From: Escherichia phage ECD7
DNA length: 64,000 bases
Reading direction: 5' to 3' (one strand)
Sequence record: NC_041936.1
The position numbers were made by a program, and so were the translations under genes. Positions 52,453-60,783 of the stretch are shown piece by piece. Numbering within the stretch: position 1 is the stretch's first letter; each line of letters starts with the position of its first letter. The notes under the pieces were generated by a model that did no database searches, had not been told where the DNA came from, and worked only from the letters and a program-made list of their open reading frames with translations.

Positions 52453-54504
52453 TTACATTTTAAATTTATCTGGCATTGCGTCTACAGATACCAGATCAGC
52501 GATAAGCTGACGTAGAGTTGCCTTATCTGCTTTCTTACGTTCGGTTTTAGCTTCGCTAATGAAGCTGGAGAAAGACAGGTCAGAAGCAGGTTTAACAACA
52601 CCCTCACGGATGAATGCATCACCGTCCGCGATCATCTCACCAGATTCTTGTAATGCTGCCAGTTCACTTTTGTTCATAATATGTGCCTCAATGTAATAAG
52701 TTTCTTGTGAATCCGTCGATGCCGTAGCACGAGTTACCGTATCAAAGGATAACACAACACCGCGAGGAAGTAAAATCTCGCATTCTTTGTAAGCAAATGC
52801 TTTGTTACCTACTGGCAATACAGGGATGTTTTCCGCGCCAGCGATAGAGAAAGCAACATTAGCGCCACCTTCACCGCGAGAGCCAGCCATAGAATCAACA
52901 CCAGCAACGGCACTAGCCACGTTTGCATTCCAGCCACCAAAAATATTAGGCGCAAGGGAAGTGCTCACATAGTTTTTAAAGTAAAACGCTTTTTGCTTAC
53001 GTGCAGTTTCCCACATTTGCGACCGGAAGTCCATACCACGATACAGAATAGTACCCGGATCAAGTTTAACACCATAGTTAGAGAAGGCATTATCCAGTGC
53101 ATCGCACATCTTGACCAATTCTTCTGGATCTGCGATTCCCTCAAACTCTTCCAGCTTGCGATCAGTTAGGAAGTTGTTCATATTGATGTATGCTGCATCG
53201 GCATATTCGCTCAACACAAAACCTTCCGCGCCCGGCAGATCAAGATCAATATCTGCCATCATTTCACCCATGTTGCTAGCAATTGCTTCAAACATACCGG
53301 ACGCAACATTACGAAGGGCATCGGTTTTAATCTGGGTGATATGACTACGCAGCATTTCAGCTTTTACATCTGCTGGCATAGACTGGTCTACTCGATCCAT
53401 TGCCAGGGCGGTGATCTTGTTTTCGAATACTTCCTCGCTCATGATTTCTTTTAAGCGTTTGATTGAGGCTGCGATAACTTCCGCAGACAACGGATCATAT
53501 TGATCCTGAACTTTTACCAGTTCGCTTACTGCGTATTTTGCATCGGCTTCGCTTTCAAAAATAGTACGCATGAAACCATAGCGAGTGATAATATCACTTG
53601 TCCAGTCATTCAGAGAACGGGCGGTTGAACGTTCTAAGGCTTGACGGTCAATCAGAGTATTAAACTGTTTCTTAGGTTCGGCTTCGGTGATATCTTCTTC
53701 CGGTTTAAGATTAATTTTTTCTGGATGATTCACGTAGTCGCTGTTATAGGTCGCTTGAGTTTTCAGCATTTCTTCTTTAGTCAAACGAGATTTAGCCGCT
53801 ACGCGTTGTTCTGCTTCCGCGTTTCGTTCTTCTTCTGACACAAGACTAGCCGCATACGCCTCATCTTTAGTCAGAGATTCACCAGTAGCCTTAGATACCC
53901 AGCGATCACCTAAATCACTTTCTACTTTAGTGAACAAGGATTCATCAAGTTTAATCCCTTTAATCTTATCAATCGCCATCCCGCGACGTTTGACAACAAC
54001 TAAAGCGATCTTTTTGCTGGTCATTACTTCCTGCTGGAATACTTCAAACTTCGGTGTACGACGCACCAAACGCTCTATAACGCGCTTAACCAGTTCGGTC
54101 TTACCTTTCATGCGGGATACGTTAAAACGGAACATAACAGCGTCTAATTGCGCTTTACGGGCTGTTTCCATAACCACATCAAAAGCACTTGCCATAACTG
54201 CAATCGGGTTATCACCTAGACCATTTTTAAGCTGTACAATACGACCGCTTTTGTTCATTTCACACAGTACAACGTGTGCGGTCTTGTCACCCATACGAAT
54301 AATTTTAGGTGTTTTGTTGGTGAAGTTGCAAAGACGGACAATCACATCTTTATCGCGTGTCTGTACTGCAAAAAGCTGTTTAGGATTCTGCTTAGGCTTT
54401 AAGCATTGTACCGGAGCAATACTGCCAAAGTTTTCTTCCTCTTCCGTCAACAGCCATTTCTCGAAAGATTCAATCATTAGATCGTCGATTTCTAAGTTAA
54501 ACAT
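52453..54504 (-). CDS. alt: Alt ADP-ribosyltransferase (head-packaged)
   Basis: 683 aa (T4 Alt ~682); C-terminal ILYRGMDF...YVSTSLAP...ECEILLPRG. Confidence 0.85.
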   Translation of the reverse strand: MFNLEIDDLMIESFEKWLLTEEEENFGSIAPVQCLKPKQNPKQLFAVQTRDKDVIVRLCNFTNKTPKIIRMGDKTAHVVLCEMNKSGRIVQLKNGLGDNPIAVMASAFDVVMETARKAQLDAVMFRFNVSRMKGKTELVKRVIERLVRRTPKFEVFQQEVMTSKKIALVVVKRRGMAIDKIKGIKLDESLFTKVESDLGDRWVSKATGESLTKDEAYAASLVSEEERNAEAEQRVAAKSRLTKEEMLKTQATYNSDYVNHPEKINLKPEEDITEAEPKKQFNTLIDRQALERSTARSLNDWTSDIITRYGFMRTIFESEADAKYAVSELVKVQDQYDPLSAEVIAASIKRLKEIMSEEVFENKITALAMDRVDQSMPADVKAEMLRSHITQIKTDALRNVASGMFEAIASNMGEMMADIDLDLPGAEGFVLSEYADAAYINMNNFLTDRKLEEFEGIADPEELVKMCDALDNAFSNYGVKLDPGTILYRGMDFRSQMWETARKQKAFYFKNYVSTSLAPNIFGGWNANVASAVAGVDSMAGSRGEGGANVAFSIAGAENIPVLPVGNKAFAYKECEILLPRGVVLSFDTVTRATASTDSQETYYIEAHIMNKSELAALQESGEMIADGDAFIREGVVKPASDLSFSSFISEAKTERKKADKATLRQLIADLVSVDAMPDKFKM

Positions 54505-54571: not shown

Positions 54572-54784
54572 TTATAATGCACCATCAAGCAATTGCTCTA
54601 AGGTGTATCCTGAATAGTCTTTTTCAATCAGGATATATTTTCCTACTCGTTTAATCCAACCGCGCATTTCAACGTATTCTGCGTAGTTGATGGTGCGAGT
54701 TGTTCCATCTTCCAGTAATGCAGTACCGATTTCGTTGATGCGGTCATAAGTTACGTCGGTAATGATGATTTCGATGTTAGCCAT
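54572..54784 (-). CDS. hypothetical small protein (70 aa from ATG 54784)
   Basis: Begins MANIE like the product of 56662..56913; track ORF has 17-codon extension from a GTG. Confidence 0.5.
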   Translation of the reverse strand: MANIEIIITDVTYDRINEIGTALLEDGTTRTINYAEYVEMRGWIKRVGKYILIEKDYSGYTLEQLLDGAL

Positions 54785-54820
54785 TTGATACTCATTAGTA
54801 GTTCGTTTCGGTATGTGTGC

Positions 54821-54849
54821 ATTATAGGGGATCACCGATCCCTTGTCAA
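54821..54849 (-). promoter_or_regulatory. promoter-leader cassette copy a (TTGACA, 17-nt spacer ggggatcggtgatcccc-like, TATAAT)
   Basis: Minus-strand -35 at 54844..54849, -10 at 54821..54826. Confidence 0.6.
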
Positions 54850-54857
54850 CAACTTTT

Positions 54858-55376
54858 TTAGTTATTTTTTAATTGCTCATCTTGCAATAGGGCAATCACA
54901 TGCTGGCGATGTTCTTCCGATTGAGGCACACCGAAAAAGTTTGTTTTGTAGAAATACTCTAATCGGTCTTCTCGTGTGCTCTCTTCCATCATGATCGCGG
55001 GTAGTCCGAGATTTCGGAAACGTCGCTTTTCTGCTGGCGTAAAATCACTGTAATACAGCATATAATCATCATTACCAGCAATGCTAAACTCATCCTTCAT
55101 GAAAGAGAATATTGCGTTTAAACGCTGTTTACCGTCCACGATTTCGATTTCATAGCGAGAGCCATCATCAATCTTAGCCATTGCGATAGCACCAACCGGA
55201 AAATCATTAATCAGGTTTTCGATAAACATACGTTTGTTTTCTGTGTCCCATACCAAAGGACGCTGATAATCTGGGTTCATGTTGATATAGCCATCTTCTA
55301 ACCATGCTTCGTAAACAGAGATGACAAAGTTTTTAGTATTGGTATAGTAACGGCGTTTAGGCGTTAAACGGTTCAT
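54858..55376 (-). CDS. DUF262/ParB-like nuclease-superfamily protein (172 aa from ATG 55376)
   Basis: Motifs DYQRPLVW and IVDGKQRLNAI; start has GGAG SD and abuts upstream stop. Confidence 0.55.
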   Translation of the reverse strand: MNRLTPKRRYYTNTKNFVISVYEAWLEDGYINMNPDYQRPLVWDTENKRMFIENLINDFPVGAIAMAKIDDGSRYEIEIVDGKQRLNAIFSFMKDEFSIAGNDDYMLYYSDFTPAEKRRFRNLGLPAIMMEESTREDRLEYFYKTNFFGVPQSEEHRQHVIALLQDEQLKNN

Positions 55377-55377
55377 A

Positions 55378-55707
55378 TTATAGTCTCCTGAATGGATCAT
55401 CACGTAAATCAATATCTTTTAAGAACTCATCCCATGAATGGCGGATATTGTTCTTAATTCTCCAGATAAGCGCAGGGATTGAACGCTCTCCCATCTGGAA
55501 GTAAGGATCATATGATCCGTATGCCCAATATGCTACTACAATTCCACAATCAGCGCAATAGTATTCTATTTCACTTGCTGGCGACCAAAGTCCATCAATA
55601 TGATCAGTGATCTTGCTTTCGATGTTATGGCTATGACAATCAGGGCAACGGATGCAATGACCTTGTTTATCGTAATTTGACGTTAGAGAATACTTAAACA
55701 ATCTCAT
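55378..55707 (-). CDS. small zinc-ribbon protein (109 aa)
   Basis: CIRCPDCH ... CADCG Cys pairs. Confidence 0.55.
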   Translation of the reverse strand: MRLFKYSLTSNYDKQGHCIRCPDCHSHNIESKITDHIDGLWSPASEIEYYCADCGIVVAYWAYGSYDPYFQMGERSIPALIWRIKNNIRHSWDEFLKDIDLRDDPFRRL

Positions 55708-56423
55708 TATAGATCCTTATTGGCTTCAAATACTGCCTTTGCGAATCCTCGCGGCGTAAGTGACCTGATAGTCTTTGTTCTGGTTCCTTTCCCGCCTAGC
55801 TTAGAATGCTGTTTGCTGTACCCTTTATTAATCTGCAACGGTTTCTTTTCTGGCATTATAAAGCCTTGTCCGGTCCATAAGCAAGTCTTTTTCGGGTACA
55901 TATCACGGGCGGCAATATACTCAGGAAACGTAGGATGCTTATCATCTTCCGGCAAATAACCGCCATATTCCCACGGATGGAACATGTAATCAGGCTTACG
56001 CCACATACTAGAGATAACGCTTACAGGATTCTCTATCATATAGGGAACTCCTAGCCATTCACCCAAATAAGCGGTTATTTTAGCTGCCCGTACATCATGA
56101 ACTTGAATCAATGGTCCTTGTTCTCGTTTCTTTCGTTCAAAGTGTGCAGCGCCACTAACAGCTAAATTGGTGCACGGTGGGAATGCAAATATAATATCCG
56201 GTTTCCCCCATTCAAGGTCCATTGCTCTTTCCAGCCAGTTCAAATCAATCCAGGTGTTTACATAGGTAATGTTTGGATGTTCAAATCTGGTATTATACTT
56301 TTTGTATGTACCGTGGTCGGCGTCATCCGCATTAAAGCAGACTACCTTATGACCTGCTTTAGCCCATTCTAGCCCCATTATCCCCGATCCGTCAAAGTTG
56401 CAGAATATTAATTTTTGTTTCAT
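55707..56423 (-). CDS. C5-cytosine methyltransferase-like protein (238 aa)
   Basis: FDGSGIMG (motif I-like), FAFPPCTNLAVSG (PC motif IV-like), MIENPVS (ENV motif VI-like); shorter than typical C5-MTases. Confidence 0.5.
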   Translation of the reverse strand: MKQKLIFCNFDGSGIMGLEWAKAGHKVVCFNADDADHGTYKKYNTRFEHPNITYVNTWIDLNWLERAMDLEWGKPDIIFAFPPCTNLAVSGAAHFERKKREQGPLIQVHDVRAAKITAYLGEWLGVPYMIENPVSVISSMWRKPDYMFHPWEYGGYLPEDDKHPTFPEYIAARDMYPKKTCLWTGQGFIMPEKKPLQINKGYSKQHSKLGGKGTRTKTIRSLTPRGFAKAVFEANKDL

Positions 56424-56665
56424 ATACGACCCTTTAACCCAGCACAGATTTTAGTCGGTTCTTTACCGTGCCACATTAAGTAAAGTCCGTTAGTGCGGCC
56501 TTGTTTTGTATATGATTCTTTTCTGATCTTCTTATAGTATCGTGCTTCCTCAGCCGATTGTTTAGAATGCCGATCATAAAGGAAGAGGAACAAAGGCCAA
56601 CCATTAGCGGCCTTAATGCAGTTATTAAGAAATTCCTTATTGCGTTTAATTAATTTTCTTTTCAC
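56420..56665 (-). CDS. hypothetical basic protein (81 aa)
   Basis: ORF coupled to flanking genes by 4-nt overlaps. Confidence 0.5.
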   Translation of the reverse strand: MKRKLIKRNKEFLNNCIKAANGWPLFLFLYDRHSKQSAEEARYYKKIRKESYTKQGRTNGLYLMWHGKEPTKICAGLKGRI

Positions 56666-56913
56666 GCTGCCCCCATTGGTTTGATAGTAACAGAATCTAA
56701 AAGACCTTTGTTAGCCAGTTCGCGGCAAGTTTTCAGATCCGTAACTTCCCAGCCAGCCGCAATCAGGTTATCAATGAGGCTGTTAGCAACTTCCTCGCTC
56801 ATGAAAGAGCACTGTTTGCCGATGGTGTAGCGCACACGCTGTAATTTCAGTTTACGGAAGCCTTTAACGTTCAGGTCTTTAGCGATTTTCTTTGCGGTTT
56901 CGATGTTAGCCAT
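56662..56913 (-). CDS. hypothetical protein (83 aa)
   Basis: ORF with GGAGAATC SD, downstream of promoter copy b. Confidence 0.55.
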   Translation of the reverse strand: MANIETAKKIAKDLNVKGFRKLKLQRVRYTIGKQCSFMSEEVANSLIDNLIAAGWEVTDLKTCRELANKGLLDSVTIKPMGAA

Positions 56914-56953
56914 TGTTTGATTCTCCTAAGTGGTATCTCGTCTTGATGGTTGT

Positions 56954-56982
56954 ATTGTAGGGGAGTTATCCTCCCCTGTCAA
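56954..56982 (-). promoter_or_regulatory. promoter-leader cassette copy b (TTGACA, palindromic spacer ggggaggataactcccc, TACAAT)
   Basis: -35 at 56977..56982, -10 at 56954..56959. Confidence 0.6.
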
Positions 56983-56996
56983 CACTTTTTATAAAA

Positions 56997-57164
56997 TTAT
57001 TTGTTAATTTCTGGTGCGTTGCTCGGATAGTAACCTTCTTTAACGCCCAGGTATTTCGCAACCATCCCTACAATCTTCTGTGCTACTACAATGTCAAATT
57101 TCAGATAATCTTCGCCGTGGGTTTCAATGATATATGCTTCACATGCTGCTTTAGTCTCGAACAT
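56997..57164 (-). CDS. hypothetical small protein (55 aa), paralogue of 60255..60422
   Basis: MFETKAACEAYIIETHGEDYLKFDIVVAQKIVGMVAKYLGVKEGYYPSNAPEINK; below ORF-track size cutoff. Confidence 0.6.
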   Translation of the reverse strand: MFETKAACEAYIIETHGEDYLKFDIVVAQKIVGMVAKYLGVKEGYYPSNAPEINK

Positions 57165-57197
57165 TTTGATTCTCCTATTTCGTTTCGGTATGGGTGT

Positions 57198-57226
57198 ATT
57201 ATAGGGGATCTCCCGATCCCCGTCAA
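57198..57226 (-). promoter_or_regulatory. promoter-leader cassette copy c (TTGACG, spacer ggggatcgggagatccc, TATAAT)
   Basis: -35 at 57221..57226, -10 at 57198..57203. Confidence 0.6.
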
Positions 57227-57240
57227 CAACTTTTTTAAAA

Positions 57241-57522
57241 TTATTCGTGATTAGTTTCGATGTTGTGCATTTTGCACCAGTTCAGCCAATCGCCCAGATC
57301 TTGATAGTTGATGCTTTTATCTGCTGCCATCGTTTTTGTCTTGATACCCATATGTGCGTTATGAGTAAGCATTTTTACAGTGAACTCAATTTTATCGCCT
57401 TTAGCTTTAACATCAACCAGTTTGGTCCACTGGCTACCAGCGCCGCGAATGTTCATGCCAACGATGTTTCCGATGTATGCTTCTTTGTTTTTCAGGATTT
57501 CGGTTGCTTTGATGAATTTCAT
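57241..57522 (-). CDS. hypothetical protein (93 aa)
   Basis: ORF downstream of cassette copy d. Confidence 0.55.
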   Translation of the reverse strand: MKFIKATEILKNKEAYIGNIVGMNIRGAGSQWTKLVDVKAKGDKIEFTVKMLTHNAHMGIKTKTMAADKSINYQDLGDWLNWCKMHNIETNHE

Positions 57523-60251: not shown

Positions 60252-60254
60252 CGA

Positions 60255-60422
60255 TTATTTGTTAATTTCCGGTGCGTTGCTTGGATAGTAACCTTCTTTA
60301 ACACCCAGATATTTTGCAACCATTCCGGTGATCTTCTGTGCCACTACGATATCGAATTTCAGGTAGTCTTCACCGTGGGTTGCTACAATGTATGCTTCGC
60401 ATTCTGCTTTAGTCTGGAACAT
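60255..60422 (-). CDS. hypothetical small protein (55 aa), paralogue of 56997..57164
   Basis: MFQTKAECEAYIVATHGEDYLKFDIVVAQKITGMVAKYLGVKEGYYPSNAPEINK. Confidence 0.6.
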   Translation of the reverse strand: MFQTKAECEAYIVATHGEDYLKFDIVVAQKITGMVAKYLGVKEGYYPSNAPEINK

Positions 60423-60455
60423 TTTGATTCTCCTTTATCTCGTTGGTATGTGTGC

Positions 60456-60484
60456 ATTATAGGGGATCACCGATCCCCTGTCAA
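60456..60484 (-). promoter_or_regulatory. promoter-leader cassette copy h (consensus TTGACA, 17-nt perfect palindrome ggggatcggtgatcccc, TATAAT)
   Basis: -35 at 60479..60484, -10 at 60456..60461; two GATC sites in spacer. Confidence 0.65.
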
Positions 60485-60489
60485 CAACT

Positions 60490-60783
60490 TTATAATGCTT
60501 TATATGCGTATTTCATAAATTTGTCTGCCACTTCATTGGCATGTTCAGATTCTACGCCTGATTCGAGAACAATAGCTAGGTCGGTTTCGTCATTCCCGCC
60601 GTACCAATGATTTGATGTTCGATTTTTTTCAATTGGAAATTGGTCACTTTTATCTGTGCGACAAAATACATCTAAATGCTCGTCGATGTAAAAGATCCAA
60701 TCTTCATAAAGAATAACGGTATTAGCCAGATTTTTATTGCCTTCAACGAAAGGTTCGGCTACAAACAAATTAGTATGTTCCAT
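60490..60783 (-). CDS. HxHW-family small protein, member 5 (start likely ATG 60783)
   Basis: TSNHWYGGNDETDLAIVLESG; track ORF extends to 60840, overlapping upstream ORF. Confidence 0.5.
   Translation of the reverse strand: MEHTNLFVAEPFVEGNKNLANTVILYEDWIFYIDEHLDVFCRTDKSDQFPIEKNRTSNHWYGGNDETDLAIVLESGVESEHANEVADKFMKYAYKAL

Follow-up and report, generated by a model that had tools for sequence, protein, structure and literature searches.

The subject of this analysis is a block of five small genes on the minus strand of a 64,000-nucleotide stretch of DNA from Escherichia phage ECD7 (NC_041936.1), referred to below as the window. The block adjoins alt (52453-54504, minus strand) in a stretch crowded with small early genes. 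Over the surrounding 2.8 kb, the sequence shares 97-98% identity with upwards of 50 Krischvirus genomes, including those of RB49, Phi1, GEC-3S, JSE and TB34. To our knowledge, the krischviruses are T4-type coliphages that lack the hydroxymethylcytosine pathway.

Gene order, coupling and borders of the unit

The five open reading frames (ORFs) listed in an initial annotation of this DNA are all present where it had placed them, on the minus strand. In gene order, they are an 83-amino-acid (aa) ORF (56913-56662) preceded by an AGGAGA ribosome-binding site, an 81-aa ORF with a GTG start (56665-56420), a 238-aa ORF predicted to encode a short Dcm-like C5 methyltransferase (56423-55707), a 109-aa ORF encoding a putative four-cysteine zinc ribbon (55707-55378), and a 172-aa ORF for a predicted stand-alone DUF262 (ParB/Srx-fold) protein (55376-54858). 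Their respective homologues in RB49 are RB49p190, RB49p189.1, RB49p189, RB49p188 and RB49p187. Existing annotations already name a DNA methyltransferase homologue in RB49, Phi1 and GEC-3S and a DUF262 protein homologue in W115.

Each of the five ORFs matches a PHROG family (E 5e-34 to 8e-91), the first four being assigned to phrog_14908 (E 6e-59), phrog_7065 (E 8.5e-37), phrog_757 (E 8e-91 over residues 1-237) and phrog_2993 (E 5e-34). Substitutions were counted in the operon genes against five relatives. Relative to RB49, synonymous and non-synonymous changes number 21 and 5 in the 238-aa gene, 11 and 3 in the 172-aa gene, and 4 and 0 in the 109-aa gene, counts that point clearly to purifying selection on all three. 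Because of the PHROG matches and this synonymous excess, the five are not considered chance ORFs. Four of the five genes show clear purifying selection, the exception being the 81-aa gene, with 8 synonymous versus 10 non-synonymous changes against RB49 and 3-8 versus 7-10 across the relatives, and the constraint on it looks relaxed.

As read from the sequence, successive genes are joined by a GTGA 4-nt overlap, an ATGA 4-nt overlap, a TAATG 1-nt overlap and, between the 109- and 172-aa genes, a 1-nt gap (TAA-T-ATG). The overlaps of 1-4 nt that had been described are thus found at three of the four junctions and give way to a gap at the last. All five ORFs are preceded by a Shine-Dalgarno-like sequence. 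An alternative TTG start at 55412 would extend the DUF262 protein to 184 aa; the 172-aa ATG start is preferred because AGGAGA lies 7 nt before it and because it is used in every public annotation.

Both ends of the unit carry a PeSL cassette (early promoter plus stem-loop), a type of element described in RB49 and Phi1 (Arbiol et al. 2010, PMC2839356). The upstream cassette (56933-57002, minus strand) contains repeat families D2, D4 and D5, and the downstream cassette (54789-54869, minus strand), which closes off the unit and drives expression of the following gene, contains families D3 and D4. Additional copies occur at 57166, 57535, 57881, 58660, 60424 and 61569. A sigma-70-like promoter with 11 of 12 consensus matches (TTGACA-17-TACAAT) is located 5' of the first ORF at 56982-56954 on the minus strand, and the promoter scan placed a perfect one (TTGACA-17-TATAAT, 12 of 12) just beyond the final stop at 54849-54821. 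The scan found no promoter of this grade (11-12 of 12) inside the unit. Three minus-strand matches of 9-10 of 12 within the unit, as well as two weak terminator-like hairpins within coding sequence, do not rise above shuffled sequence. Given the junctions, the flanking promoters and the repeated cassettes, the five genes form a real, early, translationally coupled polycistron with PeSL borders.

The unit resembles the PeSL-flanked modules of RB49 and Phi1 (PMC2839356) in having a cassette on both sides and in its setting, where adjoining PeSL units have been gained, lost and duplicated among close relatives. It differs from them in being unusually long (five genes, 2.1 kb), most of its neighbours having one gene per cassette, and in being stable in about 55 genomes save for the 81-aa gene.

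This gene order is constant across the approximately 55 Krischvirus genomes, the 81-aa gene excepted. Homologues of the 81-aa protein occur in T5-like and other T4-like phages. In JSE, a precise 242-bp deletion (window 56418-56659) takes out exactly this gene, and one IMG/VR Krischvirus contig is also without it. Phages JK32, G2248, UPWr_E1, E26 and pEJ01 cover 89% of the operon in two pieces, which fits a gap like that in JSE. Judged from these genomes, the 81-aa gene is variable and would be dispensable.

The endpoints of the JSE deletion apparently lie in two similar sequences, TGAAA(AG/CA)AAAATTAAT, located where the 81-aa and the 238-aa gene begin. In the RefSeq annotation of JSE, an internal ATG yields a methyltransferase of 223 aa shorn of motif I. 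Loss of this motif was considered and rejected because a GTG overlapping the stop of the 83-aa gene restores the full-length methyltransferase.

Rearrangements are also visible beside the operon. At position 54801 (between 54789 and 54853), the window is without a 247-bp PeSL-flanked unit carrying a 59-aa gene (homologue of phi1p186/RB49p186), a unit that is present in RB49, TB34, SAP, JSE and GEC-3S. This is a clean case of PeSL-mediated gene loss or gain. On the other side, a 238-nt direct repeat of 84% identity (56996-57233 and 60254-60491) corresponds to a small ORF (55 aa at 56997-57164) duplicated along with its PeSL cassette.

The 238-aa protein and the phage Dcm-like family

The 238-aa protein had been called C5-methyltransferase-like, and structure prediction places it in the C5-methyltransferase fold with its motifs in the expected positions. 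The AlphaFold2 model, made with 25 homologues, has a mean predicted local distance difference test score (pLDDT) of 88.9 and a predicted template modelling score of 0.88. Its overall fold is nearest to solved C5-methyltransferases, and the best structural matches are DNMT3 enzymes with a small target-recognition domain (TRD).

The motifs that had been quoted for this protein, FDGSG, FAFPPC and ENP, are present and conserved in an alignment with 25 homologues. In motif I (FDGSG), the invariant residues F10, G12, S13 and G14 lie in a loop that joins strand 5-9 (strand 1) to helix 15-22 in the model. Motif IV (FPPC), with invariant P82, P83, C84 and T85, immediately follows strand 77-80 (strand 4), and motif VI (ENP), with invariant E131, N132 and P133, lies at the end of strand 128-133 (strand 5). 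K177 and K178 are conserved, and K178 is invariant like C84 and E131. The QxRxR of motif VIII is absent from the protein, with invariant W141 and R142 at the equivalent place, and the C-terminal R220-S-L-T-P-R225-G-F-A has a likeness, by eye, to motif IX (R-x-L-T-x-R-E). On the model, the protein thus has both the C5-methyltransferase fold and its catalytic motifs.

It had also been noted that the protein is too short for a canonical TRD-bearing enzyme, and this holds. Compared with the classical C5 methyltransferases of PF00145 (M.HhaI, M.HaeIII and E. coli Dcm), it is about 90-230 residues shorter. No large variable TRD is present between motifs VIII and IX; its place is taken by a segment of about 60 residues (approximately 150-210) that is among the most conserved parts of the protein. 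Such conservation argues for a single substrate shared across the family and not for many specificities.

Proteins of this kind are common in phages. A word-indexed search returned 7,322 homologues, nearly all of about 230 aa and within 220-260 aa, and an exhaustive search gave 1,163 clusters at 50% identity. By tblastn, the phrog_757 family occurs in 1,586 of 50,697 phage records, which include Drexlerviridae, Dhillonvirus, Vequintavirinae, Phapecoctavirus and Klebsiella T1-like phages. In the BASEL collection, the family is annotated as "Dcm-like C5 cytosine methyltransferase". Full-length alignment of the window protein with bas07_0054 of phage Bas07 JakobBernoulli (236 aa, 711-bp gene) gives 56% identity (E 4e-95).

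This family includes the Dcm of phage K42, encoded by a 711-bp gene that was lost in mutants escaping retron Ec86 (bioRxiv 10.1101/2023.08.16.553469). Expressed alone from a plasmid, K42 Dcm increased the level of 5-methylcytosine (5mC) on multicopy single-stranded DNA (msDNA) as measured by liquid chromatography-mass spectrometry, and a quadruple mutant at C82, E128, K175 and K176 was inactive, with no rise in 5mC (bioRxiv 10.1101/2023.08.16.553469). Its authors modelled the enzyme on DNMT3A (bioRxiv 10.1101/2023.08.16.553469), and later papers accept it as the trigger of Ec86. Bas07 residues C82, E128, K175 and K176, which have the same numbers as those mutated in K42 Dcm, align to C84, E131, K177 and K178 of the window protein. 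By alignment and profile match, the 238-aa protein therefore belongs to an already characterised family of short phage Dcm-like enzymes (phrog_757).

The window protein and Bas07_0054 or K42 Dcm are alike in size class (238 versus 236 aa), in the positions of the catalytic cysteine, glutamate and lysine pair, in their minimal DNMT3-like architecture, and in being encoded by a stand-alone early gene. They differ in that the window gene belongs to a T4-type myovirus and sits within a PeSL-bounded five-gene unit, whereas theirs belong to T1-like siphoviruses. Production of 5mC, the target motif and the triggering of Eco1 have been published for K42 Dcm only, and for the Krischvirus copy they are predicted by analogy.

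Cytosine modification in phages carrying the operon

A noncanonical cytosine modification had been put forward, as a speculation, for the operon. Both RB49 and TB34 carry the operon; HpaII and NheI, each of which is blocked by cytosine methylation, cleave the DNA of RB49 (PMC4041780), and high-performance liquid chromatography with mass spectrometry detected no modified nucleoside in TB34 DNA (PMC13390438). These published data argue against any global or exotic cytosine modification arising from the operon.

The phage SAP is of interest here, as it is 99.96% identical to TB34 and was reported to contain 5-hydroxymethyl-deoxycytidine (5-hmdC) and gentiobiosyl-mdC without a known pathway (PMC13390438). 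The operon was considered as the cause of this modification and rejected, because TB34, the unmodified twin of SAP, has an identical copy: SAP (OZ034687.1) and TB34 show zero substitutions across window 54600-57513. The sole difference between them in this region is a 78-bp tandem PeSL duplication directly 3' of the 172-aa gene (approximately 520-600 of the SAP segment compared; window-equivalent 54853), which is probably irrelevant to the cytosine modifications reported for SAP. The duplication creates an annotated 38-aa ORF, SAP_052, and could be missed by a comparison based on single-nucleotide polymorphisms as in PMC13390438.

These results give no support to a noncanonical modification. 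An enzyme that adds a non-methyl group or that modifies most cytosines, and that might bear on the 5-hmdC and gentiobiosyl-mdC of SAP, would have to be reconciled with the cleavage of RB49 DNA, the clean nucleoside profile of TB34 and the identity of the SAP and TB34 operons, and is extremely unlikely.

Sparse marking is a different matter. Were every CCWGG methylated on both strands, 0.21% of cytosines would be 5mC, and full methylation of this motif would escape the TB34 nucleoside assay because so few cytosines are affected. On the analogy with K42 Dcm, sparse and site-specific 5mC is the likely product of the 238-aa enzyme. The window contains about half as many CCWGG (Dcm/EcoRII) sites as expected (27 observed versus 54.4 ± 6.8 in dinucleotide-preserving shuffles), a depletion that is suggestive but cannot reveal the specificity of the methyltransferase.

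The substrate might instead be something other than virion DNA, namely host DNA or RNA, with the enzyme taking part in host takeover. The negative assays lend this idea little, as they would miss sparse site-specific 5mC, and K42 Dcm methylates DNA, so that we regard a non-virion substrate as very unlikely.

The companion proteins and the question of a shared function

The initial annotation had compared the 172-aa protein to the DUF262 proteins of GmrSD-type modification-dependent nucleases. The family assignment stands. The protein matches Pfam GmrSD_N (E 4.8e-20; 73 bits versus a cut-off of 33.2) as well as PADLOC NsnA and PD-T4-2_A, and its YQRxxVW and VDGKQRL motifs are invariant. Its model (pLDDT 92.9) is wholly occupied by the DUF262 domain and superposes on the N-terminal domain of BrxU over 135 residues. 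The nuclease part of the comparison does not stand, as no DUF1524/HNH domain is found in the protein, which has no further Pfam match, or in the adjoining genes; the stop codon is followed directly by the PeSL cassette and then by an unrelated small gene. According to the model, the 172-aa protein consists of one complete DUF262 domain of the ParB/Srx type and nothing more, and it is thus not a GmrSD-type nuclease.

Small DUF262 proteins of this sort ("mini-DUF262", approximately 160-190 aa) form a populous family with the invariant motifs YQRxxVW, DGKQR and NFxGxPQSxxH, in which the nucleoside triphosphate (NTP)-binding motifs are fully conserved. Slopekvirus and other T4-type phages have members of this family, as do P22-like phages and enterobacterial prophages, always in early accessory regions. 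Their neighbours are abc2 and ead in the P22-like phage UPF_BP1, and RecT and int flank them in Salmonella prophages. In Klebsiella phage KP27, a nuclease partner was looked for downstream of the gene KP27_190 (175 aa); it runs into the beginning of KP27_188, an ORF of 304 aa for which a Pfam scan gave no match. The window protein shares with GmrSD, BrxU and SspE (DUF262 plus DUF1524 nucleases) an N-terminal DUF262 ParB/Srx domain with YQR...W and DG(K/Q)QR motifs. It differs from them in stopping after this domain, with no DUF1524/HNH, and in belonging to a separate phage and prophage family with its own C-terminal motif, NFxGVPQSxEH.

The 109-aa protein has two CxxC knuckles (C21, C24, C51 and C54), which, like a WAYGxYxP motif, do not vary among four homologues at 31-44% identity. 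Pfam zinc-ribbon models match it below their cut-offs only, Zn_Ribbon_TF scoring 19.8 bits. From its cysteine pattern, we take the protein to be a four-cysteine zinc ribbon. Homologues are found in Nonagvirus, Felixounavirus and an Acinetobacter phage, in varying gene contexts.

The 83-aa protein is confined to Krischvirus, where tblastn identified it in 55 records. Residues 12-75 of this protein have a weak PADLOC match (E 2.3e-5) to positions 722-785 of RT_UG35, the C-terminal part of a defence reverse transcriptase model. For the 83-, 81-, 109- and 172-aa proteins, separate functions in host takeover or counter-defence are most likely.

Whether the five genes travel together was assessed at 80 methyltransferase loci in IMG/VR (homologues of 46-64% identity) by tblastn at E ≤1e-3 over 6 kb around each. 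The loci were collected with an alignment as query, a single-protein query having given one close relative only. None of the other four operon genes was found within 6 kb at any of the 80 loci. Clustering of the neighbouring ORFs revealed no universal partner of the methyltransferase. The most frequent family, present at 23 of 78 loci, carries WQTP...NPPYS and was read by eye as a Dam-type methylase, and RusA and NinG likenesses were also recognised by eye among the commonest neighbours. Short DUF262 genes in other phages and prophages have no methyltransferase neighbour, and the whole genome of UPF_BP1 contains a mini-DUF262 gene while a methyltransferase homologue was not found in it. The phyletic distributions of the five families are disjoint.

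These observations do not bear out the proposed DNA modification or anti-defence module, as partners are missing at all 80 loci, the distributions are disjoint and the 81-aa gene is deleted in JSE. The evidence speaks for five independent accessory genes and not for a dedicated multi-protein machine. Co-transcription inside one genus is by itself no proof of a common function.

A co-functional module could still be imagined in which the methyltransferase, with its minimal TRD, needs the zinc-ribbon protein, the DUF262 protein or both as DNA-targeting or NTP-driven subunits. There are parallels in DpdA with its ParB-like partner DpdB and in ParB-methylase fusions. This idea would agree with the translational coupling of the genes and their unchanging order in some 55 Krischvirus genomes, with the shortness of the segment where a TRD would sit (only about 60 residues) and with the purifying selection on the 238-, 109- and 172-aa genes. 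K42 Dcm, however, is active alone from a plasmid, and none of the 80 other loci pairs the methyltransferase with a zinc-ribbon or DUF262 gene. The commonest neighbours elsewhere are Dam-, RusA- and NinG-like by eye, none of them universal, and the mini-DUF262 and zinc-ribbon families are found in phages without the methyltransferase. A module of this kind is quite unlikely.

A narrower link between two of the genes was also weighed, in which the stand-alone DUF262 protein is a new counter-defence decoy or poison of GmrSD/BrxU/SspE-type enzymes and offsets the liability that 5mC from the methyltransferase creates towards type IV restriction. The superposition on the BrxU N-terminal domain is consistent with such a role, as are the early accessory locations of its relatives (beside abc2 in a P22-like phage, flanked by RecT and int in Salmonella prophages). 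BrxU, to which TB34 is immune, cuts DNA with modifications of the 5mC type (PMC13390438). This immunity is already explained by the unmodified DNA of TB34, though. The mini-DUF262 family and the methyltransferase are not found together elsewhere, and fully conserved NTP-binding motifs fit an enzyme as well as a decoy. We consider the pairing unlikely.

The reading preferred here, to which we assign a probability of about 0.7, is that of a PeSL-bounded early unit of five independent accessory genes, including an orphan Dcm-like methyltransferase and a nuclease-free DUF262 protein. It draws on results of this analysis, namely the structure of the genes, their folds and motifs, the families to which they belong, the signs of selection, where the promoters lie and the failure of the genes to co-occur elsewhere. 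Methyl transfer by the 238-aa protein, its target motif and its anti-restriction role would follow from these by inference.

Several points weigh against the reading of five independent genes with an active Dcm-like enzyme among them. Pfam PF00145 scores 15.2 bits against the 238-aa protein, below the cut-off of 22 (E 0.014), and aligns to residues 10-100 only; among the 25 homologues, five match it at E ≤0.01, the best at 1.3e-6. Neither the single protein nor a 25-sequence profile matched any sequence in the PDB. Because of this sub-threshold score and the missing PDB match, the link to classical C5-methyltransferases rests on structure and motifs. NCBIfam gave no match for the 238-aa or the 172-aa protein, and PADLOC MTase_II matches the 238-aa protein at E 3.6e-4. 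Activity and specificity of the Krischvirus enzyme are a prediction, and even for K42 Dcm the CCWGG motif was deduced from mutation of the msDNA motif and not from methylome mapping (bioRxiv 10.1101/2023.08.16.553469).

Growth of RB49 on E. coli B and a result from Drexlerviridae add to these points. E. coli B, the host used for propagation and plating of RB49 (PMC4041780), natively carries retron Ec86 (bioRxiv 10.1101/2023.08.16.553469), and growth of RB49 on this lineage is unexpected if its enzyme acts like K42 Dcm. Either the Krischvirus enzyme is no trigger of Ec86, or the phage counters the retron. In Drexlerviridae, the BASEL study could not tie restriction resistance to methyltransferase genes in any simple way, and the anti-restriction role is for this reason presumptive. 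Lastly, some 55 Krischvirus genomes keep the arrangement of four to five genes constant, a pattern with which functional coupling inside the genus would be compatible.

Under the preferred reading, the operon would be transcribed early as one unit in the hyperplastic region that krischviruses have beside alt, with a PeSL cassette at each end and five genes of independent origin that share a promoter and translational coupling. The 238-aa product would be an orphan C5 methyltransferase dependent on S-adenosylmethionine. In it, C84 would act as the nucleophile towards C6 of a flipped-out cytosine and E131 as the proton donor to N3, with a methyl group passed to C5 to give ordinary 5-methylcytosine. 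A short fixed target motif is most probable, CCWGG having been proposed for K42 Dcm, and about 0.2% of phage cytosines would be marked. The mark presumably blunts cytosine-sensitive restriction, with the known drawback that such enzymes are sensed by retron Eco1/Ec86. The 172-aa product would contribute an NTP-binding DUF262 domain, complete but lacking a nuclease, and the 109-aa product a zinc ribbon.

The practical value of these findings is limited. They indicate that a Krischvirus gene annotated as "hypothetical" or "DNA methyltransferase" is related, at the level of an orthologue, to the phage Dcm that was shown by experiment to trigger Eco1, and this kinship predicts sparse 5mC on RB49-like DNA and possible sensing by Eco1. 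The remaining biological interest lies in what the stand-alone DUF262 proteins, an abundant family, and the zinc-ribbon family do.

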